DNA of 64,000 nucleotides from Candidatus Poseidoniales archaeon. Lineage in GTDB: Archaea; Thermoplasmatota; Poseidoniia; Poseidoniales; Poseidoniaceae. Position 1 is the first letter of the stretch, and each line of letters starts with the position of its first letter. Below, one piece after another: positions 5,947 through 47,670 of this stretch. The translations under genes were made by a program, and so were the position numbers. The stretch lies in NCBI GenBank assembly GCA_038144595.1, contig JAYQOB010000008.1, forward strand, positions 151,871-215,870, read 5' to 3'. The notes under the pieces are model-generated. The model searched no databases. It saw only the letters and a program-made list of their open reading frames with translations, and was not told where the DNA came from.

Positions 5947-6018
5947 GCGAGCGTAGTGTAGTGGTTATCACCGGGCGTTGCCAACGCCTGAACCCGGGTT
6001 CGAGTCCCGGCGCTCGCA
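5947..6018 (+). tRNA. tRNA-Gly (anticodon GCC); genomically encoded CCA follows (6019-6021)
   Basis: Manual fold. Acceptor stem gcgagcg/cgctcgc. D-loop agtggtta. Anticodon stem gggcg/cgcct with loop ttGCCaa. T-arm ccggg-ttcgagt-cccgg. Discriminator A. Confidence 0.85.
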
Positions 6019-35031: not shown

Positions 35032-36306
35032 ATGGCCGACGGTTCCCCCGCCGACTCCATCACCATCATGGGTGCGGGGCTTTCCGGGTTGGCGGCCGCC
35101 ACGCTTCTTGCTCGAGCAGGTCGCGAGGTGCACGTCCATGACATCCGCAACGATTCCGGCGCTCGGTTCGACGGTGATTTCCAAGCCTTGGAAAATTGGA
35201 GCATGGACGCTGACTTTTTTGACCAACTCGAAGGTTGGGGCTTTGATTCAACAGCGTTCAAATCCACATCGTTTTCAGTGGTGGACTTGATTCACCCCGA
35301 CGATGTTGTCACCCAAGCCAAGACCGATGGTGTCGCCTACCGCATCGTTGAGCGCGGCACCTCGGACCACACCATCGACCAGGCGTTCAAGCGGATGGCC
35401 ATCGAGGCCGGTGCGACGTTGCATTACAAGTCAAGGATTGACGAAAAGGACGCCGACATCGTGGCGTGTGGGCCAAAGGACACCTCGGCCATCGCACTGG
35501 GCGAAATCTTTCACACTTCGCACCCCAACCACATCGCCTTTCAACTGAACGACAAACTCGCTCCCGGGGCGTACTCCTACCTCATCGTCATCGACGGCGT
35601 GGGTCTCATCTGCACCTGCCTGTGGCGCAAACAAAAGAAAAGCGAACGGTTCCTCAACGAGACCATCGCCTGCTACCAGCGCCTCTACCCCGACATGGAC
35701 ATGCAGCCCGTAAAGCGGGTGGGCGGCAAAGGCGATTTCACGCTCAACGGCTTCTACACCGTCCCGGGGACCGGCCAGCACTTTGTCGGTGAATCCGGTG
35801 GTCTCCAGGACTTCATGTGGGGCTTTGGCATGCGAATGGCGGTGTGGTCCGGCGTCTTGGCGGCTGAGGAAATGCTCGGTGGCAAGCCCTACGAAAAGGA
35901 AGTCCGCCGTCAACTGCTTCCCTACGTCCAGACGAGTGTGGCCAATCGCTGGCTGATGAACAGGGTGGGCGACCGGACGTTCAAGCGCATGTGCGTGCAG
36001 TGGATGCGAGATCAGAAGCGAGGCGGGGACGGGCTGCGATGGATTGGGAAGTTGTTTCGTCCCAGTTTGTTCAAGCGCTTGGTGTTCCGCGTGACCTCAC
36101 CGTTCATGCTCAAGCGAATGGAGGGCCCGACGCGCCCGCTTCGGCTGCCGTTCCGGAAAGCCAAACCCCGCGACGCGTGGGAACAGAGCGAAGCGGCGCT
36201 GGAGGTCAAAGCGCGATGGGAGGCGGTTCGGCGAGGTGGCGGGCACGTCTCCTTCACGAGCAACGCCGAGGGTGAGGCGCAAGAAATCTCAGCGATTTCT
36301 TCATAA
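35032..36306 (+). CDS. FAD-dependent oxidoreductase (geranylgeranyl-reductase-like flavoprotein family)
   Basis: ITIMGAGLSGLAAATLLARAG dinucleotide-binding motif. The N-terminal part of ORF 34690 is antisense to moaE and is trimmed. Confidence 0.6.
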   Translation: MADGSPADSITIMGAGLSGLAAATLLARAGREVHVHDIRNDSGARFDGDFQALENWSMDADFFDQLEGWGFDSTAFKSTSFSVVDLIHPDDVVTQAKTDGVAYRIVERGTSDHTIDQAFKRMAIEAGATLHYKSRIDEKDADIVACGPKDTSAIALGEIFHTSHPNHIAFQLNDKLAPGAYSYLIVIDGVGLICTCLWRKQKKSERFLNETIACYQRLYPDMDMQPVKRVGGKGDFTLNGFYTVPGTGQHFVGESGGLQDFMWGFGMRMAVWSGVLAAEEMLGGKPYEKEVRRQLLPYVQTSVANRWLMNRVGDRTFKRMCVQWMRDQKRGGDGLRWIGKLFRPSLFKRLVFRVTSPFMLKRMEGPTRPLRLPFRKAKPRDAWEQSEAALEVKARWEAVRRGGGHVSFTSNAEGEAQEISAISS

Positions 36307-36329
36307 TACCAACCCCTGTGGCTCAAGGC

Positions 36330-37195
36330 ATGAGCGACCTCTACGGATTGAAACTTGAGCCCATGCCAAACCGACTTGTCAACTACGGTGTGACCGACAA
36401 CGGCATCGCCGTCATTGAACTCACGTCCGATTCGGCCGGTGCTCCCTTGAGGGTCCCAACGACCGCTCGCCCAACACCTACACTCACGGCATGATGCGAG
36501 ACATCGACGAAGCCATCGTCCGTGCTCGTTTCGACGACAGCGTCACCTGCATCGTCCTCACCGGCAACGGTGCCTCGTTCTTCTCAGCGGGTGCTTCCAT
36601 CCAGATGCTGAACAGCGTCAGCCCCGGCTTCAAGTACAACTTCTGCCTTCACGCCAACGAAACCCTCTCTCGCCTCGAGCAGACGGCCAAGCTTGTCGTG
36701 TGCGCCATCAACGGCCACGCCGTCGGCGGTGGACTTGAAATCGCCATGGCGGCCGACATCCGCATCGCTCGCAAGAACTCCGGGAAGGTTGGCCTGCCTG
36801 AGATCAACCTCGGTGTGCTCGCCGGAACCGGCGGTACCGCTCGCCTCACCCGCCTCATCGGCAAGGCCAAGGCCCTCGAGATGATGGTCACCGGCGAACT
36901 GATGTCCTTTGAGGACGCTCACGCTTGCAACCTCATCAACCACATCTGGGAAGGCGACCCCGATGACTTCCGCCGAGACATCCTTGACTGGTGCAGCCAG
37001 TTCACCCTGCCCAACAAGGCCGTCAAGGCCGTTGGCAACATCAAGCGCTCCTGTCAAACCGGTCCTGAAATTCCCTTCGAGTACCACTTGGCACTCGAGC
37101 GTGAGCTCCAAGCCGCCCTCTTCAATAGCAGCGACGCCAAGGAAGGCATCGCCGCTTACGTTGAGAAGCGTGTGGCCAACTTCACCGGTCAGTGA
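36330..37195 (+). CDS. enoyl-CoA hydratase (crotonase family), frame-shifted near 36450-36460
   Basis: MSDLYGLKLEPMPNRLVNYGVTDNGIAVIELTSDS... is in frame A. ...NDRSPNTYTHGMMRDIDEAIVRARFDDSVTCIVLTGNG...CAINGHAVGGGLEIAMAADIRIA is in frame B. Confidence 0.7.
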
Positions 37196-38142
37196 ACTTC
37201 GGCGTGGTACCCATGGACAACATCCACGTTCCAGCCGACGTTCCCGACGAGTTGATCGAGACCTACCTCGACAACATGGCCGCCGCCACCGCGGGCACGG
37301 GCAGCATGAACCTCTTCGCTTGCGACCAGAAAATCGAACACCTGAACGACGATTTCTACGACGGCGGCAAGACCATTCCGCTCTCGTCGAACGACCCCGG
37401 GCATTTGTTTGAGATCGGTGCACGCGCCCACGCCGACGGCACCATCGGTGTCCTCGCCGGTCAGTGCGGTCTCATCGCCCAGTACGCTCGAGACCACCCC
37501 GACGTGCCCTACCTCGTGAAGTTGAACTCCAAGTCTCACCTGGTCAAGACCGCTCAGCGCGACCCCATCAGTCAGGCCCTTTGGGACATTGACGACGTGA
37601 TGTCGCTGGTCCACAACGGCATCAACGTGGTCGGTATCGGCTACACCGTGTACATCGGCAGCGAATACGAGCATGAGATGCTGACCGAAGCCGCTCACTT
37701 CATTCGCCAGGCCCACGAACTCGGGATGATTTCGGTCGTCTGGATGTACCCCCGCGGTCAGGCTGTTGCCGACGAGAAAGACCCGCAACTGATCTCGGGC
37801 GCCGCAGGCGTTGCCAGTTGCATCGGTGCGGACTTTGCCAAGGTCAACTACCCCAAGGCCTTCGAGGGCATGACGCAACCTGAATCTCTGAGGATCGCTG
37901 TTGAGGCCGCAGGTCGCACGGGCATTATCTGCTCGGGCGGTGGTTCGCTCCCTCCACGTGACTTCCTTCAGCGCCTGTACGATCAAATGGCCGTTTCCGG
38001 CTGTCGAGGCGCTGCGACCGGTCGCAACATCCACCAGAAGACAACCGAGGAAGCCGTTCGCATGACGGCTGCCTGCCACGCGATCATTTGCGAAGGTGCC
38101 TCGGTTGACGAGGCCATGGCCATCTTCTTTGAAGGCAATTGA
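37192..38142 (+). CDS. fba: class I fructose-bisphosphate aldolase (archaeal DhnA/Fba type)
   Basis: VWMYPRG, GADFAKVNY (Schiff-base Lys region), ICSGGGS and GRNIHQ motifs. Confidence 0.75.
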   Translation: MNFGVVPMDNIHVPADVPDELIETYLDNMAAATAGTGSMNLFACDQKIEHLNDDFYDGGKTIPLSSNDPGHLFEIGARAHADGTIGVLAGQCGLIAQYARDHPDVPYLVKLNSKSHLVKTAQRDPISQALWDIDDVMSLVHNGINVVGIGYTVYIGSEYEHEMLTEAAHFIRQAHELGMISVVWMYPRGQAVADEKDPQLISGAAGVASCIGADFAKVNYPKAFEGMTQPESLRIAVEAAGRTGIICSGGGSLPPRDFLQRLYDQMAVSGCRGAATGRNIHQKTTEEAVRMTAACHAIICEGASVDEAMAIFFEGN

Positions 38143-38189
38143 AATTCATCCGGTCCTAGATTCTCATGAATCACAGGGTAGCGAGTGAT

Positions 38190-38245
38190 TCGAAAGCCCT
38201 GCGAGCCCTCTGATTGGGTCAAAACGAATCAGTGGGCTTGTCGGA
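38190..38245. repeat. left terminal inverted repeat of the AT-rich island, with an internal hairpin (agccctctgatt-loop-aatcagtgggct)
   Basis: ~50/55 nt match to the reverse complement of 40043-40100. Confidence 0.7.
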
Positions 38246-40042
38246 TTATCTGATTCACCCCATTGAATAAGGATTGAACAATGTACCAATTGGATTAATT
38301 AAAATTCATTCGCATTAAGCATTCGTTAGGATCATCTTGTGATTTGGGAAATGCTTGGAAAAAAGCAGAGAAATGGCCATCAGAAGATCCTGAACCTTCC
38401 GCATCTGTTGTCAAAAGAAAAGAGAGCGCTTCATCAAACATGACGCAATATCGTTTGGGATTTATTCCAACTCATGATCAAGGACAAGTCTTTCGTAATT
38501 GTTCTCCATGGACTGGGAAAAAAATGCTGGAGGGTATTTCCCGGCACTACGAGGACTTAATGGGTGCATATTGATCCCGTTGAAACCATCTTCGACGATG
38601 TTTCGACCCTTCAGTGGGCTAATGAGATGAAGAGGTGTCAATTTGATTGAGACATCAATCATAACAGATGAGATTAATCAGTCGTCTGGCAAAGGCGTTA
38701 GACAAGTGAAGAAATTCAAAATTCGATATTTCTTGCGAAAGTCAACAAATACTCAATTTGAAGAAAATTGTATTCCAAATTCAGCAACGGGAATGCACAA
38801 ATTCCATTCCTTGGATGATTTCGACTGAGTTTTGATGATTCCAACAAACAAATGCCAATGCATCAAATTCTAATCCGTTCTCGGTTTCTGCTTCCCAAGC
38901 GAGATTCACACTGAATTAGCCGAAACAAATGAACATTTAATTGTGTTGCAAATCCGTTGATATCAAAATCAACATGGCTTATTTTCGTGGTTTGGTTCAA
39001 GAACTCATGCATCAATCATTGTTGCCCATCAAAACATCCAGTTAACAATTTTCAATTTGTAATCACAAGGATTCGCAGGAAAACACCAATTCGTCGATGA
39101 ATTTGCAGCATGTTTAATGCATGGTTCAATCCGTTAATCGTTTTCTTTTAAATTCCATCACCGATGGATTTCGCTCGGCAGAAATGAGCATTTTCCTCAC
39201 GCTTAAACCAATTTTCAACAACAATCCATTGGACATGCTCCCTGCATCGTTCCATTCTTAGCACCAATTCTGATTCAGCGCTAAACCAACAATCATTATG
39301 AAAAAAAATACGTTCACTCTTTGTGATATGGAAAAGCAGATTCCAGATTGAATGGAACAAGAGGACAAGAATGTTGAAATTTGGACATGCTCATACCATT
39401 TCTTATGAAGATTAAAATCTGAACTCATATTGCAAGATTTATTTTCTTAGGGAAAATTGATGTTCCAGATTGAAATTCATCAGGTCCTGTTAATCTCAAT
39501 CCGTCAATTTTGGACTCGAAAACATTGTGTAAGCATGGAGGACTGCTCACTACACAGGAAAAACGTTATAATCTGAGCAGACAGATGAGTGAAAGGATAA
39601 ATTGGTACTCTGCCGGGATTCAAATGATTATCTCCATGGGCAAATCAATTTTTGGATCCGAGGATGGAAAGGAGAAACATCAACGAAGTATCTCTTTCTT
39701 GCTTGACCATTGTATCGGAATTTGGTTCTCATTGGTTTTTTCACACTTTTGGATTCGGGCACGAGTCCAATTCAAATTTTTCTTCGTCCCAATCATGGAA
39801 TGTGAATTTTCTTGTCGTAGTCGTATTGGCAGATCGTTCACTCTCTGGCTCCTGTAAAAACAACTCCAAAACAAGTGGCGAGAATACCTCTTCATTGGAT
39901 AAAGGGAAAAAAACGACATAAGCACATGGCTCACAATTTCTTGGAATTTAGCAAAACAAAAATCGATTCTTTTCGTCATGTTTCTGCGGCTTGCATTGGC
40001 GAAATCCGTTGATTCAATCTTTATCTAACCGAATGAGGGTCA

Positions 40043-40100
40043 ATGCACAAACCCACTGATTCGTTTTGACCTCATCAGAGGGCTCGCAGTGGGCTTTGTC
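40043..40100. repeat. right terminal inverted repeat of the AT-rich island
   Basis: Reverse complement matches 38190-38245: aaagccc..tgcgagccctctgat..ggtcaaaacgaatcagtggg. Confidence 0.7.
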
Positions 40101-40214
40101 ACTAGCCTACCGTCTGCTTAGGTCTCCACGTAGCCGGATCTTTGAGTGAGGAGGTTCCCCTCCGTCACGGCTGTGCCTTGAGAGAGACGGCGGCAGGGCG
40201 TCGAGTTGGTGAAC

Positions 40215-40538
40215 TCAGAGTTTCTCATCGCTGTTGGTCATGAAGTTGCCTTCACTGTCAACGATGATGGGCGTTCCCTCGACCCACTCAGGGCAGTTCT
40301 CTGACACCCAGGTGCGGGTGGCCCATTCACAGATGTCATAGCCGCCAGACAGGATGCCGGAGCGCTTGATGTAGCCGACCTTGACGATGTCCTTGTCCTT
40401 GGAGAGCACGTTGCCCAGCTGCTGGCTGGTGGTGCCATGACGCATGGTGCTGTTGATGTACTCCAGAATCTCTGCAGTGTTTCGTGGTCGATCGCCTAAG
40501 AATTTCTTGATTTTTTCACGGATGCGTGTTGTTTTCAT
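40215..40538 (-). CDS. small winged-helix (wHTH) DNA-binding protein (107 aa)
   Basis: TAEILEYINSTMRHGTTSQQLGNVLSKDKDIVKVG helix-turn-helix-like segment. Intermediate GC. Abuts the right IR of the island. Confidence 0.45.
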   Translation of the reverse strand: MKTTRIREKIKKFLGDRPRNTAEILEYINSTMRHGTTSQQLGNVLSKDKDIVKVGYIKRSGILSGGYDICEWATRTWVSENCPEWVEGTPIIVDSEGNFMTNSDEKL

Positions 40539-40713
40539 GGTTGGTCCCTCCTGTCATTTTTTGAGCGGCCTGATTGGAAATGTGCCACTAAGGTTGAGGA
40601 GCGAGGCCGCTGATATAATGGTTCCTCCTCGGATGAACGATTTGGTTACGTTTGATGACTCAATTGCGGTGTATTTCCAACACTGCGGTACGAATATGTA
40701 AGTTATTTTTCAC

Positions 40714-40724
40714 AGTTCCACTGG
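40714..40724. promoter_or_regulatory. perfect archaeal mini-ORB-like dyad TTCCAGTGGAA (read on the minus strand) in an AT-rich divergent intergenic region
   Basis: gttccactggaaatg. Identical to the canonical origin recognition box core bound by Orc1/Cdc6 in Sulfolobus and Pyrococcus origins. Confidence 0.45.
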
Positions 40725-40808
40725 AAATGTATAACTAAATTTAACTTCAAAGATTTTTTATTTGCAAAAGCACTGGCCAAACCACTCCCGGGCATGCCAA
40801 GGTGACTT

Positions 40809-43316
40809 GTGATGAAACATCGCACCATCCGATCAACCGCTCAACGCCAAATTCTGGTCTGGTTGCGCCATGGTCCCTCAACGGTTTCAGAGATCGCCAA
40901 GCAATTCTCCATGCGAATGCCCCACGCCTCGCTTGCATGCCGACAACTGAGAGAGGCTGGGCTGATAACACGAGACGAACGCGGAGGGCTTCGAAACGCG
41001 CCCATCTACCTGAGCCAGTTCGGTCATGAACGGCTCGAAGAGGACGCGCTCGGAAAAATGCAGCAGTATGCGGGGGCTCTCGCCTCATCTCGCCATCCCT
41101 TGGTGCTTCATGCCGATGAGACCAACGTGCTCCTTGCTTACATGGAACCCCCTGAATCCTCCTTCGTTTTCGTCGGCGAACGACCAGGTGATGGCTCCAC
41201 TTCCTCCAGTGGAAATTTAGGGGGGGCGTGGGTCTTGGCGCCACGCGATGCTGTCACGTGGTACACGCTCAGTGATGCAACCGTTTCTGCACCTCCTGCG
41301 CCGAGAGAATCCAGCACGCTGGCAGCGTTTGAATTGACGCAACAACGCATTGGTTTGGTCCGTGGCGTTGTGCTCGAGCAGCGCGGCCATCGCGGTTTGG
41401 TAGAAGGGCAGTCGTTCACCATGCGTGCACGACCAGGCCTGCCCGGCCCCTCCTTCCTCTCACAAGGTGAAGTTGAGATTGGCACCTTACCGGGGTTGAA
41501 CGAAGGCTATGCACCGTCCGGCGGACTCTTGGCCCACCTTCGGTCCGCTGCCCATCGAACCTTGTTGCTTGGAAACATCACGCATGGCGCCTTTGCGCTC
41601 AGCGACTGTCCTTCCTCCTCACCTGTGCCGTTGCCGTATGCTGTCCTGCTGCACTGGCTTGCATTGAAACACCCGCGCATGGCGTTGGCTCGGCGCCAAG
41701 AACGTTATCTTGAGTTGGTCAAGGAACTTGAGACGAAGGTCAACCAAACGACCTCATCGCTCATGCGTTCACTTCTTCTCGAGTTCGGAGAGCAACAATG
41801 GACCCATGATGTGTTGCGGCCCGGTTGGTTCAACACCCACGGTGTGGGTGAGCGAGCCGTTGTGGCTGTGCTTCACCACGTCATGGAGGTGGGTTGGCTT
41901 CCATTTGTGATGGATTGGGCCTTTGAACAACCGAATCCTCCAGTTTTGTCTCGTTGGCTCACCCACCCGGCCTGCAGAGCGGTGGTGACGCGCCATGGTT
42001 CTCTACCCGAATCAAAGGGGAGCGCCCTGTTGGTTGACGGTCAAGACTTGGGTACGGTTGACGTTGAGTTGAGCAGATCGGTGAAGTTTGACCTCAACCT
42101 GAACCTCGACGAGGTGGAGTCGAATGCTTCTCGCCAACGAATGGATGCGGTGCCGAGCAACGCAGAAGAGTTGTTGACCGCCTCAGTTCGTCATCCAGAA
42201 CAGGTGTTTTCGTCGCCTTCACCGGAGGGATTGACTGGTCAGCGCCTCACCGAAGCGCTCCACCTGTTCCCGACGGGCGATGAGGGCAGAGCCAATGAGC
42301 TGGAATCCACCGACCCACTGGCGTCGTGGATCGCCTCGCCTCCGAAGCATCGTCCTGCCCGGTGGATTCGTCTGCGAGACCGCCTTCCCGGCGGTTGGGT
42401 TGAACTGATGCCCGTCCACGATGTGCCCTTGGCCGATCTTCCCTTTGCCTTGGCTTCAGGCGGGCGTTCATGGCGGCGTCAGGCACTCCAGCGAATTCAT
42501 GCCGAGGCAGCCCACGACATCACCACCGTGCTGCGCTGGCGTCAGCATCTCCAACCGGACGACGGGCATCGTTTTGCTGTGGCCACCTGCATGCTATGTT
42601 CGCTCACCCCTTCGCTTTCAGAGCATGTTGCTCTGTTCGAGGACGCTAGTCGTGCATGGTTTGAGGCTCCCATGAACGAGCAAGATGTGTTGGAATGCCT
42701 CTTCGGGCCGTCCACAACGGGTCACGATCAGGCCTTGCTTCAGCGGTGGATGGACCGTTCCATGCTCCAGCCAAAAGGTTCCATGTTGCGTGCGTGGGCC
42801 ATCGGGTTGGGCATCGCCCAACGCCAGGAACCATGGCTGCCTGAAACAGAGCGAACCCTCATGGAAGTGCTTCCCTCGACGTGGTGGTCACCTTTTGCGC
42901 AGCGTTGGCTCACGACCCAACTGTCCAGTCAAACCGGCCGCACGTGGCTCGCCAACTTCGAGTGCAGTTGGCCTGCCTTGTTGGCCCGAGCCCACGGCGA
43001 GCGTTCCCTCTTCCCCGGCCATGCTGGTGAACACCCCGGCTTCACCCTTGACTCCACCTCGCTTCTTCCGGTTCAACTTCTGCCTGAGGGGGTTGGTAAG
43101 GCGGCATTGACGGACGTGCACGCCATGGTGCATGCGCTTGAACAGGGCGCGCCGGTCCCGGTCCTCTCGACGCATCCGTCGGCGGGTTGGCTGGTCCGTC
43201 CGGTTGAACAATGGCCCGTGTTTGGAAGGGATGTCATGGCCGTGGGGGACCCGGACATCGGCGAGGTGTTGTTCACGCGGAGCTTCCACGCCCGCCATCT
43301 ATCCTCACGCCGATGA
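40809..43316 (+). CDS. large hypothetical protein (835 aa) with an N-terminal winged-helix DNA-binding domain and no recognisable catalytic motif
   Basis: STVSEIAKQFSMRMPHASLACRQLREAGLITRDERGG (ArsR/MarR-like wHTH) at residues ~20-60. The remainder is Leu/Ala/Arg/Trp-rich with no Walker motifs. Confidence 0.55.
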   Translation: MMKHRTIRSTAQRQILVWLRHGPSTVSEIAKQFSMRMPHASLACRQLREAGLITRDERGGLRNAPIYLSQFGHERLEEDALGKMQQYAGALASSRHPLVLHADETNVLLAYMEPPESSFVFVGERPGDGSTSSSGNLGGAWVLAPRDAVTWYTLSDATVSAPPAPRESSTLAAFELTQQRIGLVRGVVLEQRGHRGLVEGQSFTMRARPGLPGPSFLSQGEVEIGTLPGLNEGYAPSGGLLAHLRSAAHRTLLLGNITHGAFALSDCPSSSPVPLPYAVLLHWLALKHPRMALARRQERYLELVKELETKVNQTTSSLMRSLLLEFGEQQWTHDVLRPGWFNTHGVGERAVVAVLHHVMEVGWLPFVMDWAFEQPNPPVLSRWLTHPACRAVVTRHGSLPESKGSALLVDGQDLGTVDVELSRSVKFDLNLNLDEVESNASRQRMDAVPSNAEELLTASVRHPEQVFSSPSPEGLTGQRLTEALHLFPTGDEGRANELESTDPLASWIASPPKHRPARWIRLRDRLPGGWVELMPVHDVPLADLPFALASGGRSWRRQALQRIHAEAAHDITTVLRWRQHLQPDDGHRFAVATCMLCSLTPSLSEHVALFEDASRAWFEAPMNEQDVLECLFGPSTTGHDQALLQRWMDRSMLQPKGSMLRAWAIGLGIAQRQEPWLPETERTLMEVLPSTWWSPFAQRWLTTQLSSQTGRTWLANFECSWPALLARAHGERSLFPGHAGEHPGFTLDSTSLLPVQLLPEGVGKAALTDVHAMVHALEQGAPVPVLSTHPSAGWLVRPVEQWPVFGRDVMAVGDPDIGEVLFTRSFHARHLSSRR

Positions 43317-45813: not shown

Positions 45814-46434
45814 TCAATCGATGTTTTCGTCGCCAGGTGGGACGCGGCTGGCGTGATTCAAGGCCACACCTGCTGCCATGAGGGCGATGGTGACCGAATA
45901 CACGCCAAGGTCAATCCAGCCCTTGTTGGCGAAGCCGAAGTAGAGGTAGAACGCAAGGCCGAGCAAGAGGCACCATGCTGCCATGGTTCGCTGGCCACCG
46001 GCCACCGAGGTGTCGTTGAGGGCCGTCCACGTGTCGTTGATGAGAAGGCCACGGAACCAGTCGGCGACCGGTTGTTGTTGGTTGATGGTCCGGGTGCCCA
46101 AGGCGATGAGGCCTGCGCATCCTGCGATGAAGATGGTGTCGCCAAGGACCTCATAGTGGAAGCCATCCTTTGCCTCACCAAAGGCGGCGTTGGTGGCTTC
46201 GAAGGTGAGCAGGCCGCCCCAAGAGACGTGGTAGGTGGGGTGAATCATGCCAAACATGTTCAGAACGGCGAGCACCAAGCCCCAAAGGCCAACGCACACC
46301 ATCACGGACGCATAAACGGGCACCTTTCCGGTGGTGGATTGGGCGGTTGCATCGTCGCTCATGGGCCCTGCGACTTGCGAACTGCATTTAAGCACACCGA
46401 AACGGGCGAACGCTGGAGGAAACCGCCACCTCAC
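45814..46434 (-). CDS. hypothetical integral membrane protein
   Basis: 5-6 TM helices. Its start overlaps the orc1 stop. Confidence 0.4.
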   Translation of the reverse strand: MRWRFPPAFARFGVLKCSSQVAGPMSDDATAQSTTGKVPVYASVMVCVGLWGLVLAVLNMFGMIHPTYHVSWGGLLTFEATNAAFGEAKDGFHYEVLGDTIFIAGCAGLIALGTRTINQQQPVADWFRGLLINDTWTALNDTSVAGGQRTMAAWCLLLGLAFYLYFGFANKGWIDLGVYSVTIALMAAGVALNHASRVPPGDENID

Positions 46435-47670
46435 AACGAGGTTTGGTGGTGGTAGTTGGAATTGAACACCGTGCGCATCTCTTCCTCGGCGGTGCCCATG
46501 ATTTCACGGACGTCCACGTTGGCCGGGATGCAGGAATTGATTTCCTTGGAACGACCATAGCGGCCCTTGCTGACCGTGCGTGCGGTGACCAGACCCAGCA
46601 TGTCAAGGTTGGAGATCAAACCGGAAATTCGACGTTGGGTCAGTGGGTTTTGCCGGATGTGCTTGCAGGCTTGGCGGTAAATGTCGTACACTTGGCCGGT
46701 TTGGACGTTGCGCAACCCGTTCTGTTCGTTGAGAAGAATCGCGGCAAGCACCAGTTTTTGTTGGCTGGGGAGGGTGGCGATCACGGGCGTCATCTGGTCG
46801 GATTCAATCTGACTTTGGGCGATGCGGACGTGGTTTTGGTTTACGATGGATTCGCCGGACTGTTCGGCCTTCTCTGCTGAAATTCGCAGCAAGTCCAAGG
46901 CACAACGAGCATCGCCATGTTCCTGTGCAGCCAGCGCCGCACACAACTCGATGACACCGGGTCCAAGGGCCTCGGCGTCAAGTCCTTCTTGGGCGTTGGC
47001 GGAGAATGTCCTGAAGTTGTTCGGCGTCGTAGGGCCGGAACAGCACGTCCAACTGGCCGAGTCGAGAGCGGACACGAGGGTCAAGGAAATCCGTGAACTT
47101 GAGGTCGTTGGAAATGCCGATGACGCACGAGCGGGCGTGCTTGAGCGAGGCGTTCATGCTGGTCAAATTGTACAGCAGGTCGTCGCCAGCCTTGCGAACG
47201 AGGTGGTCAATTTCGTCGAGGACGATCACAAACACACCGCCACGGCGGTCCATTCTTCGAACAAGTTCGTTGAAGACACGGTCGGTTGGCCATCCAGTGA
47301 AGGGGATCTCATCTTGTTCAAAGTCCTCAAGCAGTGAATTTCCGATGTGGCTGAGCACCCGGTACTGCGTGTCGATTTGGCGACAATTCACCATGATGGA
47401 CTCCACCTGTCGACCCATGGTCTGACCCTTGGCTCGAAGGTGGTGGCAGACGTAATCCGTGACCGCTGTCTTTCCGGCACCTGTCACACCGTAGAGTGTC
47501 ATGTTACTGGGGATGTGGCCCTTCAGGGCTTCCCAGAGGTTGTAGGAAATTTTCTCGATCTCTTCCTGTCGGTGAGGAAGTTGAGAGGGGCGGTAATTGT
47601 GACGAAGATGTTCCTTGTTTTTGAAGAGGGTTTTCTGGGAAACAAACTTGTCGAAGATGTTGGTTTCCAT
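46431..47670 (-). CDS. orc1: Orc1/Cdc6 replication initiator, frame-shifted (CCC run at ~46990)
   Basis: Walker A LYGVTGAGKTAV, Walker B VIVLDEIDHL, sensor regions and the C-terminal winged helix (HGDARCALDLLRISAE). N- and C-terminal parts lie in ORFs 46978..47670 and 46431..47084. Confidence 0.8.

Follow-up and report, generated by a model that had tools for sequence, protein, structure and literature searches.

The AT-rich island between the convergent fba and DUF3860 genes of this marine group II genome is probably a horizontally acquired two-gene cassette that has since decayed, that is bounded by two inverted copies of an element of ~110 nt that we call E, and that would have been moved in trans. 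Taken by itself, the island is a mobile cassette of an ordinary kind, now decayed. What is probably new for the lineage is the cassette-end element, E, a previously undescribed family of which no description was found in the literature on Poseidoniales repeats, MITEs, integrons and islands. The features on which this reading is built are listed below; the window refers to the whole 64-kb stretch of DNA analysed.

37192..38142, plus strand: DeoC/LacD-family (class I fba-type) aldolase, the left flanking host gene (Pfam PF01791, E=3.7e-39).
38138..38157, plus strand: first copy of a 20-nt direct repeat, ATTGAAATTCATCCGGTCCT, overlapping the fba stop codon (repeat search, 95% identity).
38168..38278, minus strand: left copy of E (nhmmer against the E profile, positions 8-116, E=5e-21; alignments).
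38199..38241, no strand assigned: left arm of the ungapped inverted repeat, the core of E, with the hairpin CCCTCTGATT / AATCAGTGGG.
38253..38300, plus strand: conserved promoter-like or 5′ leader module, TTCACCCCATTGAATA...CAATGTACCAATTGGATTAAT, which in other genomes lies upstream of a 289-aa gene.
38344..38574, plus strand: 76-aa ORF left over from the N-terminal part of the 289-aa gene, with which it has NAWKKAEK in common; the remainder of the gene is unrecognisable.
39469..39488, plus strand: second copy of the 20-nt direct repeat, ATTGAAATTCATCAGGTCCT, partner of 38138-38157 (repeat search).
39661..39894, plus strand: pseudogene of an 89-aa small membrane protein, with the start codon lost, an in-frame stop and homology across three frames.
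40009..40121, plus strand: right copy of E (nhmmer against the E profile, positions 4-117, E=3e-29).
40047..40089, no strand assigned: right arm of the ungapped inverted repeat.
40215..40538, minus strand: DUF3860 winged-helix protein, the right flanking host gene (Pfam PF12976, E=3.6e-34).

In 200-nt windows, the GC content is 0.32 to 0.45 between ~38150 and 40100, as against 0.56 to 0.66 in the flanks. These values bear out the first-pass annotation, which had placed an AT-rich island at 38145-40110: GC falls there from ~0.60 to 0.32-0.45 and returns to the ~0.60 of the surroundings by 40100-40200. That annotation was also right to call the island the strongest compositional anomaly, since it is the deepest GC trough of the 64-kb window (1-kb bins of 0.425 and 0.380 vs 0.51 to 0.64 elsewhere). 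Its description as gene-free holds for intact genes, but pseudogene remnants are recognisable inside. The longest start-to-stop ORF in the island has 115 aa and the longest stop-free stretch 127 aa. No ORF inside the island matched Pfam, and the 26 six-frame, stop-free fragments of at least 38 aa, searched as a concatenate against 5.8 billion protein clusters, gave no match at E<=0.01.

The content of the island is read by comparison with locus L075, where a unit of 2.24 kb carries three intact genes. Its order is E(-), promoter-like module, 289-aa gene, 89-aa membrane-protein gene, E(+). The E(-)...E(+) unit of the window (1.95 kb) is collinear with this intact unit, with both genes wrecked. 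Specifically, the promoter-like module, which in L075 precedes the ATG of the 289-aa gene by 22 nt, is in the window 81 to 86% identical to L041 and L070-L079. Residues 18-99 of the L075 289-aa protein align to 38353-38562 with 25.6% identity (tblastn, E=0.003 in a tiny database), the 76-aa ORF is 34% identical to its L041 homologue over 58 aa, and there is an exact DNA match of 25 to 27 nt at 38348-38374. The pseudogene of the 89-aa gene has 72% nucleotide identity to L075 1825-2038, with the protein pieces distributed over three frames, and its indels are of 2 to 7 nt and lie outside homopolymers. Two conserved core genes of the window, cdc6 and the enoyl-CoA hydratase gene, are also frameshifted; therefore, some of the island indels could be assembly errors, although those observed are not of the homopolymer type.

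The first-pass annotation had offered a non-autonomous mobile or a decayed integrated element as one reading of the island. This was essentially right, except for the suggested plasmid or virus remnant. No plasmid or virus genes were found in the island, blastn with E gave no match among PLSDB plasmids, and a scan of IMG/VR with the E core returned one chance match, with flanks devoid of similarity. The tRNA scan of the window detected a sole tRNA, tRNA-Gly at 5947, and no tRNA-linked integration site at the island. The 20-nt direct repeat (38138-38157 / 39469-39488) is the only direct repeat, and its copies do not bracket the unit.

The inverted-repeat ends are real: the ungapped arms 38199-38241 and 40047-40089 span 43 nt and are 93% complementary, with 0 comparable matches in 100 shuffles. 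They had been put at ~55 nt, extendable to ~75 nt, but the homologous ends are longer and extend, with gaps, over 38168-38278 and 40009-40121. A third copy of the repeat arm was not found in the 64-kb window. The arms belong to two copies of E, which is an oriented element. From inside to outside, it consists of an optional 5′ hairpin (TTGATTC-N15-GAATCAA), the core AAGGGTCAATGCACAAA, an arm CCCACTGAT, an invariant loop TCGTTTTGACC, a second arm ATCAGAGGG, and an outer part comprising CTYGCAGTGGG, a small terminal hairpin and CTACCC. The CTAC after the 3- to 4-bp terminal hairpin is invariant, and 9-nt arms alternate in orientation. The left E of the window points its 3′ end outward toward fba, with the terminal-hairpin variant TCGAATCACTCG followed by CTACCC, and its outer end is ~25 nt from the fba stop codon. 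The right E points its 3′ end outward toward DUF3860, with the 5′ extension TTGATTCAATC..., the terminal variant CTTTGTCACTAGC and then CTACCG; it is 91 to 98% identical to E copies in other MAGs. The DUF3860 gene is convergent with the island, and its stop codon is ~95 nt from the outer end of the right E.

Each repeat had further been credited with a 12-bp stem and an 11-nt loop. The stem exists (CCCTCTGATT x AATCAGTGGG), but 10 of 11-12 positions are paired, with one T.T or A.A mismatch, and the loop is of 11 to 13 nt. Folded as single-stranded DNA, the two strands of the left copy have z scores of -3.5 and -3.0 and those of the right copy -1.1 and -0.7, the right copy favouring a competing helix, CCCACTG/CAGTGGG. 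The hairpin is only modestly special. A C/D-box reading of CUGAUGA on the minus strand was dropped, as half of the copies have CUGAUUG.

A 20-nt degenerate core pattern searched against the GTDB species genomes occurred in 58 places, ~38 of them in Poseidoniales MAGs. These ~38 sites share 80 to 130 nt of conserved flank, and the bacterial matches are bare chance matches inside genes. E is present in at least 30 Poseidoniales MAGs, mostly labelled Poseidoniaceae or Poseidonia, with up to 4 copies per MAG. The contexts are unrelated, as the neighbouring ORFs differ between loci; alignment of the 36-44 kb part of the window with the E loci is limited to E, plus matches of 72 nt and 27 nt to L041. 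Several MAGs have more than one copy, and numerous copies lie within 20 to 600 nt of contig ends. Furthermore, E similarity does not track host kinship: the right E of the window is 91 to 98% identical to copies from unrelated contexts but only ~76 to 79% to the one that L003 has in the syntenic slot.

For 23 of the ~38 copies, a same-strand ORF of 63 to 707 aa stops between -40 and +52 nt from the E 5′ end, and the ORFs that end at E have no common C-terminal peptide. The next gene past E is convergent in about two-thirds of the copies. Tandem pairs in the same orientation occur in L016, L023, L027, L058 and L065, and outer-facing pairs in L035 and L046. Some copies have no co-oriented upstream ORF, and opposite-strand genes between E copies also occur. 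In other words, neither a simple terminal-inverted-repeat transposon nor a simple ORF-plus-site cassette fits all E arrangements.

Besides the window and L075, E(-)...E(+) units include one of 1.15 kb with small genes, among them one for a pentapeptide-repeat protein (L059), and one of 3.28 kb (L045 and L038) encoding an AspBHI/Mrr-type restriction endonuclease, a TetR regulator and an SDR, the ORF of the SDR terminating precisely at E(+). Outward-transcribed genes precede both ends of such units. The cassette interiors have a GC content of 0.37 to 0.47 vs 0.55 to 0.63 outside, and it is low whatever the GC of the host. The 289-aa gene is also found, without any E, in low-GC genomes.

Identical cassettes recur in 3 to 6 genomic contexts and break off sharply, either within the final ~20 nt of E or at the outer margin of E. 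The 289-aa cassette is 93 to 99.8% identical across at least five flanking contexts and 89% in a sixth (L041). All these contexts agree to the nucleotide on the left boundary of the cassette, which lies inside an inverted E, between the terminal hairpin and CAGTGGG; the right boundary comes after GGGTA in the 5 contexts where it is readable. A cassette comprising a 707-aa surface-protein gene and E occurs in L003 and L037 with 97.9% identity over 2416 nt, although the two contexts differ; the last ~100 nt of this gene with E recur in a third context, L053, a locus that begins just upstream. Homology of the 707-aa cassette stops at ...CGCTAC. Conversely, L037 and L045 share a host neighbour but have different cassettes. 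Taken over the family, breakpoints vary, occurring after CAGTGGG, after CTAC, after CTACCCT and once mid-E (L052 vs L011). Neither the window unit nor the 289-aa or the 707-aa cassette has a target-site duplication at its outer margins; the flanks are instead inverted-symmetric (T[GC]TG[AC]TT). A true empty site was not recovered. Cassette insertion at the centre of the palindrome TCAGAGGGG|CCCCTCTGA was considered and rejected, as the left boundary of the 707-aa cassette is 8 nt outside the palindrome.

The slot occupied by the island varies between relatives. The fba aldolase is syntenic in L001-L010 with ~85% nucleotide identity, and an identical DUF3860 protein is found in 322 blocks of the sequence collection. 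Exact-match look-ups of four proteins of the window, aimed at locating the strain elsewhere, found none of them on record. L005, L009 and L010 are syntenic with the window and have the identical DUF3860 protein; between fba and DUF3860, L005 and L010 have a GNAT gene and L009 an ion-channel gene, and neither the repeat nor AT-rich DNA is present there. In L001-L004 and L006-L008, the slot holds a gene of 706 to 721 aa, split into two gene calls in three assemblies, and these seven independent assemblies, from different samples, have E-bounded low-GC cassettes there. The 706-aa surface-protein gene has one repeat copy in the slot of some relatives. Tblastn of these slot proteins (706-aa, GNAT, ion channel) against the window revealed no remnant inside the island.

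A scheme for the origin of the island can be proposed from these comparisons. An AT-rich accessory cassette would have landed between the convergent fba and DUF3860 genes of a high-GC marine group II host of the order Poseidoniales, probably of the family Poseidoniaceae, and its genes would since have decayed into pseudogenes. The cassette genes probably came from low-GC Poseidoniales relatives, an origin that would explain the AT-richness. E may provide the ends at which a non-autonomous passenger cassette is recognised and crossover takes place, in a role like that of the inverted-repeat ends of mobile insertion cassettes or of the attC/VCR sites of integrons. As ~40 E-bearing loci contain no recognisable transposase, integrase or HUH nuclease, we infer that the cassette was moved in trans by an enzyme encoded elsewhere. 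The loci retrieved likewise contained no RAYT or Y1 gene, no integron integrase (IntI), and no partner IS or autonomous element with the same ends. The location of E beyond the last gene on either side makes it probable that E also terminates or insulates transcription that runs toward the convergent host genes. Going one step further, we tentatively suggest, though with somewhat less than even confidence, that E marks an undescribed site-specific gene-cassette mobilisation system of planktonic marine group II archaea, served by a non-adjacent enzyme and integron- or REP/RAYT-like in function while unrelated to either in sequence. The cargo of such a system would be AT-rich genes for defence nucleases and surface and membrane proteins, carried from genome to genome and dropped between convergent host genes.

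The most serious competitor, which we consider unlikely, takes E for an RNA-level 3′-end module (a terminator, 3′-UTR stabiliser or insulator) that is carried along passively by accessory genes, with the cassettes turning over by homologous recombination at the ~100-nt E copies and flanking core genes and no dedicated recombinase. The position of E at the stop codon of a co-oriented gene, mostly facing a convergent gene, agrees with this, as do the outward-transcribed genes before both unit ends, the lack of a recombinase in the E loci and the one mid-E breakpoint. However, the consensus structure that RNAalifold predicts for 33 E copies is weak (-4.3 kcal/mol), and covariation is nearly absent. 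The main hairpin is 84% paired, with a compensatory change at one pair and 7 breaks. The asymmetry of G.U vs C.A reveals no strand preference and favours neither an RNA nor a DNA function. E is conserved at the level of primary sequence, loop included, and it has no long T-tract, on which archaeal terminators rely. Furthermore, the 289-aa cassette breaks off at one and the same nucleotide in every context where its breakpoints can be read, which points to site-specific cutting and not to homologous recombination, and homologous recombination cannot put a cassette together with E into an E-less context.

It is far less probable that the island is an assembly artefact, a low-GC segment of another Poseidoniales genome mis-joined via E. 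E is common to many genomes and often lies at contig ends, and the frameshifts in cdc6 and the enoyl-CoA hydratase gene suggest an error-prone assembly. Against this, E-bounded low-GC cassettes fill the slot in the seven independent assemblies, and an artefact would require two chimeric junctions simultaneously. The pseudogene versions match no intact sequence that was recovered; therefore, they were not simply borrowed from an abundant relative.

Slightly less probable still is the replication origin proposed in the first-pass annotation, in which the island would be an AT-rich unwinding region between inverted ORB-like Orc1/Cdc6 sites, with cdc6 ~6 kb away. The AT-rich, non-coding character, the inverted-repeat flanks and the cdc6/orc1 homologue at ~46434-47670 suit such a role. 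The 220 nt directly upstream of cdc6 have no obvious ORB repeats or AT-rich stretch, and a search for ORB-like repeats next to cdc6 and in the divergent promoter region of the DUF3860 and 835-aa genes found only weak repeats. E contains CCACTG, a hexamer that occurs in some ORB cores, although the resemblance, judged by eye, is weak. Nevertheless, E is multi-copy, at ~38 places in at least 30 MAGs, dispersed at the 3′ ends of unrelated accessory genes. The annotation had itself named multiple genomic copies of the repeats as an argument against an origin, and at least 4 full E copies occur in one MAG (JAYQHX01, loci L041/L031 and L059); by that reasoning the origin is refuted. Ordinary genes without E take the slot in L005, L009 and L010, a replacement that an essential origin would not allow. 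The interior, moreover, has homologues among protein-coding genes whose intact forms occur elsewhere, and its 1.8 kb is well above the length of known archaeal unwinding elements, which are far shorter. Cumulative GC skew has no extremum at 38-40 kb in the window, although 64 kb is too short to decide. Finally, that the island is one long structured non-coding RNA has next to no probability: 1.8 kb without ORFs in a compact genome would fit, but Rfam yielded no relevant family for 38000-40900 even with the cutoff relaxed to E<=10 (over the whole window only tRNA-Gly passes gathering thresholds; the best sub-threshold match on E is CRISPR-DR30 at 21 bits vs a gathering score of 50, E=1), the interior is conserved elsewhere only as segments of coding genes and their promoter, and the island is collinear with a protein-coding unit.

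Among the archaea of the surface ocean, those of marine group II belong to the most abundant; they are uncultured and have compact genomes. To our knowledge, the mode by which their flexible gene pool is exchanged is essentially unknown, and for most such streamlined plankton we know of no transposons, plasmids or integrons tied to genomic islands. A conserved, easily searchable cassette-end mark of ~110 nt would provide a handle for cataloguing the accessory gene pool of the lineage, and it would explain where the assemblies of the lineage break. It would also offer a route to the responsible enzyme through gene families that co-occur with E across genomes. For the window, the practical conclusion is negative: annotation of the island as a replication origin is to be avoided.

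Compared with known systems, the island resembles an archaeal oriC with ORB or mini-ORB sites in being AT-rich and non-coding between inverted repeats, with cdc6 within 7 kb, whereas E is multi-copy, dispersed, strain-variable and located at gene 3′ ends, and the interior is derived from coding sequence. There is also a likeness to bacterial REP/BIME elements, which are associated with RAYT transposases (IS200/IS605-type Y1). E lies between convergent genes at their 3′ ends, its 9-nt arms CCCNYTGMT / AKCARNGGG alternate along E and its tail, and CTAC (GTAG on the other strand) stands beside a small hairpin at the edge of the element, as REPs carry a conserved GTAG/CTAC next to a small hairpin. 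In contrast to REPs, E appears to have a low copy number (2 per 64 kb), its arm motif is not enriched elsewhere in the window (11 observed vs 14 expected), no RAYT or Y1 was seen near it, and it is much longer and linked to cargo genes.

Mobile insertion cassettes (MICs), such as MIC231 of Bacillus cereus, are non-autonomous passenger-gene units. With these and MITE-like elements, the E units share inverted terminal bounds, passenger genes, the lack of a transposase of their own, a dispersed multi-copy and intergenic distribution, and decay in place. They differ in that the E ends are of ~110 nt and strongly conserved across species, vs inverted repeats of 20 to 40 nt, show neither a target-site duplication nor a partner IS with the same ends, and are co-oriented with the adjacent terminal gene, occurring also singly or in tandem. 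Archaeal MITE hosts that have been reviewed include Sulfolobus, Halobacterium, Haloquadratum, Desulfurococcus and a few others, with no mention of marine group II (PMC10969869).

The attC sites of integrons, such as the ~120-nt VCRs of Vibrio cholerae, and of CALINs, which are attC clusters lacking an integrase, pair a gene with a structured 3′ site of ~100 nt at or near its stop codon, a pattern seen in 23 of the ~38 E copies. E parallels them in five tandem arrays, which occur alongside inverted pairs, in cassettes that recur in several contexts with the crossover inside the site, in a cargo of accessory, defence and surface genes, and in the lack of a nearby integrase, as in CALINs. Archaeal integrons are mostly CALINs, and Poseidoniales are absent from the main text of the paper describing them (PMC9668308). 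Inspection of both strands of the E consensus for the attC core pair (R'' RYYYAAC, R' GTTRRRY) found no such pair, only a near-miss, TTCTAAC / GTTAGAA, confined to the optional 5′ extension and with no partner at the other end. Unlike attC arrays, inverted E pairs are common and the cassettes carry their own promoter-like modules; the conservation of E across many species lies in its sequence, that of attC sites mainly in their structure.

The island between the fba-type aldolase gene and the DUF3860 gene (38145-40110) is an ordinary decayed mobile cassette, not an origin. GC falls from ~0.60 to 0.32-0.45 at the aldolase stop and rises again at ~40100, ahead of the convergent DUF3860 gene. This is the lowest GC trough of the 64-kb window, and the drop, the recovery and the rank as strongest compositional anomaly in the first-pass annotation were all borne out. 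The longest ORF within the island has 115 aa, Pfam gave zero matches for any island ORF, and a search of 5.8-billion protein clusters with all stop-free island fragments concatenated found no homologue. The island is gene-free as regards intact genes, but its interior holds decayed remnants of genes seen intact in L075 (L001-L082 are the other loci and contigs compared). The inverted repeat described at its ends pairs 38199-38241 with 40047-40089 (43 nt, 93% complementary); it is not found a third time in the window, nor at all in shuffled sequence. The proposed hairpin can fold from each arm. As single-stranded DNA the left copy is clearly stabler than shuffled sequence (z about -3); the right copy is not (z about -1) and favours a competing helix. 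The two arms are copies of an oriented element of ~110 nt, termed E.

Features of the island and its flanks
37192-38142, plus strand: DeoC/fba-type aldolase gene, left flank
38168-38278, minus strand: left E, full copy by profile search, pointing outward
38253-38300: promoter-like module, 81-86% identical to its counterparts in L041 and L070-L079
39661-39894: homologue of the 89-aa gene of L075, 72% identity
40009-40121, plus strand: right E, full copy by profile search, pointing outward
40215-40538, minus strand: DUF3860 winged-helix gene, right flank, convergent

Scanning one genome per GTDB species with the 20-nt degenerate core GATTCRKTTTGACCYMATSA returned 58 matches, ~38 of them in Poseidoniales MAGs, mostly labelled Poseidoniaceae or Poseidonia. 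Around the archaeal matches 80-130 nt are conserved; the bacterial matches are the core alone, by chance, inside coding DNA. Two of the matches with full-length E of the Poseidoniales type sit in MAGs labelled Salipiger bermudensis (L040) and Gemmatimonadetes (L061), probably archaeal contigs mis-binned into bacterial MAGs. In several MAGs, from two to four full copies are spread over separate contigs; multiple genomic copies are among the findings that the first-pass annotation named as counting against an origin. Many copies lie 20-600 nt from contig ends, as expected because repeats break assemblies.

Parts of E, from interior to outside
1: optional 5′ hairpin, TTGATTC-N15-GAATCAA
2: AAGGGTCAATGCACAAA
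3: arm, CCCACTGAT
4: invariant loop, TCGTTTTGACC(YM)
5: arm, ATCAGAGGG
6: CTYGCAGTGGG
7: small terminal hairpin, three sequence variants
8: CTACCC

Strong conservation ends at CTACCC, and six bases beyond it are semi-conserved (NYTGMT). In about eight loci a tail of more 9-nt arms follows, and such tails often close with a perfect palindrome, e.g., TCAGAGGGGCCCCTCTGA. Alignment of the window with E-bearing loci is limited to E, except for two short stretches in L041, and the ORFs beside E are unrelated between loci. The right E of the window is 91-98% identical to copies elsewhere in unrelated contexts, against ~76-79% for the L003 copy in the syntenic slot. By these comparisons, E similarity does not track host relatedness.

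In 23 of the ~38 copies a same-strand ORF stops within a few tens of nt of the E 5′ end, often with the TGA within TTGATTCA. These ORFs span 63-707 aa and share no common C-terminal peptide; therefore, E is non-coding. Past the E 3′ end, about two thirds of cases have a convergent gene. The cargo and neighbours that Pfam could name are of a kind typical of flexible genomes, namely an AspBHI/Mrr-type restriction endonuclease, a TetR regulator, a short-chain dehydrogenase (SDR), a pentapeptide-repeat protein, an HNH nuclease, a treble-clef zinc-finger protein, an HsdM methylase, an esterase and surface proteins. No transposase or integrase was seen among them. In L026 (7060-8590) and L020, E copies have as neighbours HsdM, a methylase of type I restriction-modification, and an HNH endonuclease, which suggests that E-bounded cassettes cluster in defence islands.

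Units capped by outward-pointing copies, E(-)...E(+)
Window: 1.95 kb
L075: 2.24 kb, three intact genes
L059: 1.15 kb, three small genes
L045 plus L038: 3.28 kb, restriction endonuclease, TetR and SDR

L038 and L045 are neighbouring pieces of a single contig, and a 337-aa SDR ORF crosses their join and stops exactly at E(+). The end-proximal genes of every such unit are transcribed toward their own end. Tandem same-orientation pairs (L016, L023, L027, L058, L065) and outer-facing pairs (L035, L046) were also observed.

E marks the ends of low-GC accessory cassettes at convergent-gene junctions, and homology between loci breaks in or at E. A 707-aa gene and its E are present in L003, next to DUF3860, and in L037, flanked by an unrelated gene upstream and by a 96-aa gene; over 2416 nt the two versions are 97.9% identical. 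The final ~100 nt of this gene and E recur in a third downstream context in L053, a locus that begins just upstream. Homology stops at ...CGCTAC. L037 and L045 have a 96/102-aa host neighbour in common and different cassettes, and the SDR-gene end with E(+) lies in two contexts (L038 and L043), breaking after CGCTACCCT. At 93-99.8% identity, the cassette of a 289-aa gene (L075, 656 to about 1731) recurs in five or more different contexts, and L041 provides a sixth at 89%. On the left, all copies begin at one and the same nucleotide, which falls within an inverted E, between the terminal hairpin and CAGTGGG; on the right, they end after GGGTA in the five contexts that were readable on that side. 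Cassette interiors have a GC of 0.37-0.47 even where host GC is 0.55-0.63. The 289-aa gene without E is also found in low-GC Poseidoniales genomes, suggesting that the cargo derived from low-GC relatives, which would explain the AT-rich island.

Over about half of its length the 289-aa protein (L075 785-1654) matches part of ~360-aa cyclophilin-type peptidyl-prolyl isomerases at 48-61% identity; NCBI assigns one of these, by name, to a Thermoplasmatota archaeon. The protein lacks the PF00160 domain and has the look of a fragment derived from some host gene family. L082 (8006-11782; 1.98-Mb contig ERZ28548062 boult_4 contig_10864) has a gene-poor ~3.8 kb of GC 0.34-0.42 in which the sole ORFs are one of 72 aa and a version of the 289-aa gene truncated to 176 aa. 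E is not detectable there, and the stretch may be a second decaying island.

We infer that a trans-acting enzyme uses E as its module for recognition and crossover; the chemistry may be either transposition or site-specific recombination. E would probably also stop transcription from entering convergent host genes, since it comes after the last gene on each side. The main rival, in which E has a purely RNA-level role and cassettes are exchanged by homologous recombination, is weakened by the lack of covariation in E and by cassette boundaries that are common to contexts and nucleotide-precise.

Against the proposal of a replication origin stands a comparison of the slot between fba and DUF3860 in ten syntenic loci (L001-L010) with ~85% identical flanking DNA. 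Gene order is constant (cdc6 side, DUF3860, slot, fba and beyond); slot content differs.

Slot content in the syntenic loci
L001-L004 and L006-L008: 706-721 aa thrombospondin-repeat surface protein, GC 0.43-0.47; one E, adjoining DUF3860
L005 and L010: GNAT acetyltransferase; no E
L009: ion-channel gene; no E

Neither the repeat nor AT-rich DNA is present in the slot of L005, L009 or L010. The slot is hypervariable, and an essential origin could not be exchanged among relatives in this manner. The surface-protein gene is called as two pieces in three of its loci, probably from assembly frameshifts. The DUF3860 protein is unchanged on many contigs and occurs identically in 322 blocks of the collection. 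Its gene in the window (40215-40538, minus strand) differs from L001-L010 by 22-33 nt without a single amino-acid change; at most one of the differences lies outside third codon positions, and the protein is under extreme purifying selection. In 10/10 syntenic loci it adjoins a conserved gene (window 40809-43316, plus strand) for an 835-aa protein with a weak N-terminal MarR/ArsR-type HTH match and otherwise no Pfam domain.

The island is a decayed counterpart of the L075 unit, which is among the loci (L070-L079) returned by a metagenome scan with a 21-nt island-interior sequence common to L041. In L075 a 119-aa gene lies ahead of E(-), and after E(-) come a partial inverted E, a promoter-like module, the genes for 289-aa and 89-aa membrane proteins, E(+) and a convergent host gene. 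The window is collinear: E(-), the module, a 76-aa ORF in which a weak N-terminal resemblance is all that survives of the 289-aa protein, ~1.1 kb lacking recognisable similarity, the 89-aa-gene homologue and E(+). That homologue has lost its start codon, contains an in-frame stop and is spread over three frames. Its indels are of 2-7 nt and outside homopolymers, which argues for true decay rather than long-read error, in an assembly that is itself not error-free given frameshifts in the cdc6 and enoyl-CoA hydratase genes. The cdc6/orc1 homologue (46434-47670, minus strand; protein 93-95% identical to the 413-aa Cdc6 of L001) falls into ORFs of 217 and 230 aa at a frameshift near 46994-47002, through either an assembly indel or pseudogene formation. 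The enoyl-CoA hydratase gene (36306-37195, plus strand) is frameshifted near 36446-36473, with the L001 protein matching in one frame over residues 1-56 and in another over 48-296. Two conserved-gene frameshifts within 11 kb suggest an error-prone assembly.

The motif AATCCGTYRAT occurs five times in the window (1.5 expected), and four sites lie on the plus strand of the island (38951, 39128, 39498 and 40003). The right E has the last of these as its 5′ extension; the other three may be relics of decayed E copies. A 20-nt direct repeat (19/20 identical, plus strand) at 38138-38157, over the fba stop codon, and 39469-39488, inside the island, may have been left as an att-like footprint when something inserted earlier, but no model fits it.

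No Rfam family matches E, and full-text literature searches gave no description of E-like repeats in Poseidoniales. The main text of a paper on archaeal integrons does not mention the lineage (PMC9668308), and the list in a recent MITE review has no marine group II example (PMC10969869). In contrast to classical terminal-inverted-repeat transposons, E units have neither a target-site duplication nor, among the loci compared, a partner insertion sequence. The earlier alternative of a mobile or decayed integrated element holds in essence, as a decayed mobile cassette collinear with L075. Unlike integron attC sites, E lacks RYYYAAC / GTTRRRY cores, and its inverted pairs are common. REP/BIME elements resemble E in the alternating 9-nt arms and the conserved CTAC beside the terminal hairpin, whereas E seems to be present in few copies and its loci showed no RAYT gene. 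As a family, E appears to be a novel, lineage-wide version of the cassette-end/non-autonomous-element theme, served by a putative trans-acting enzyme.
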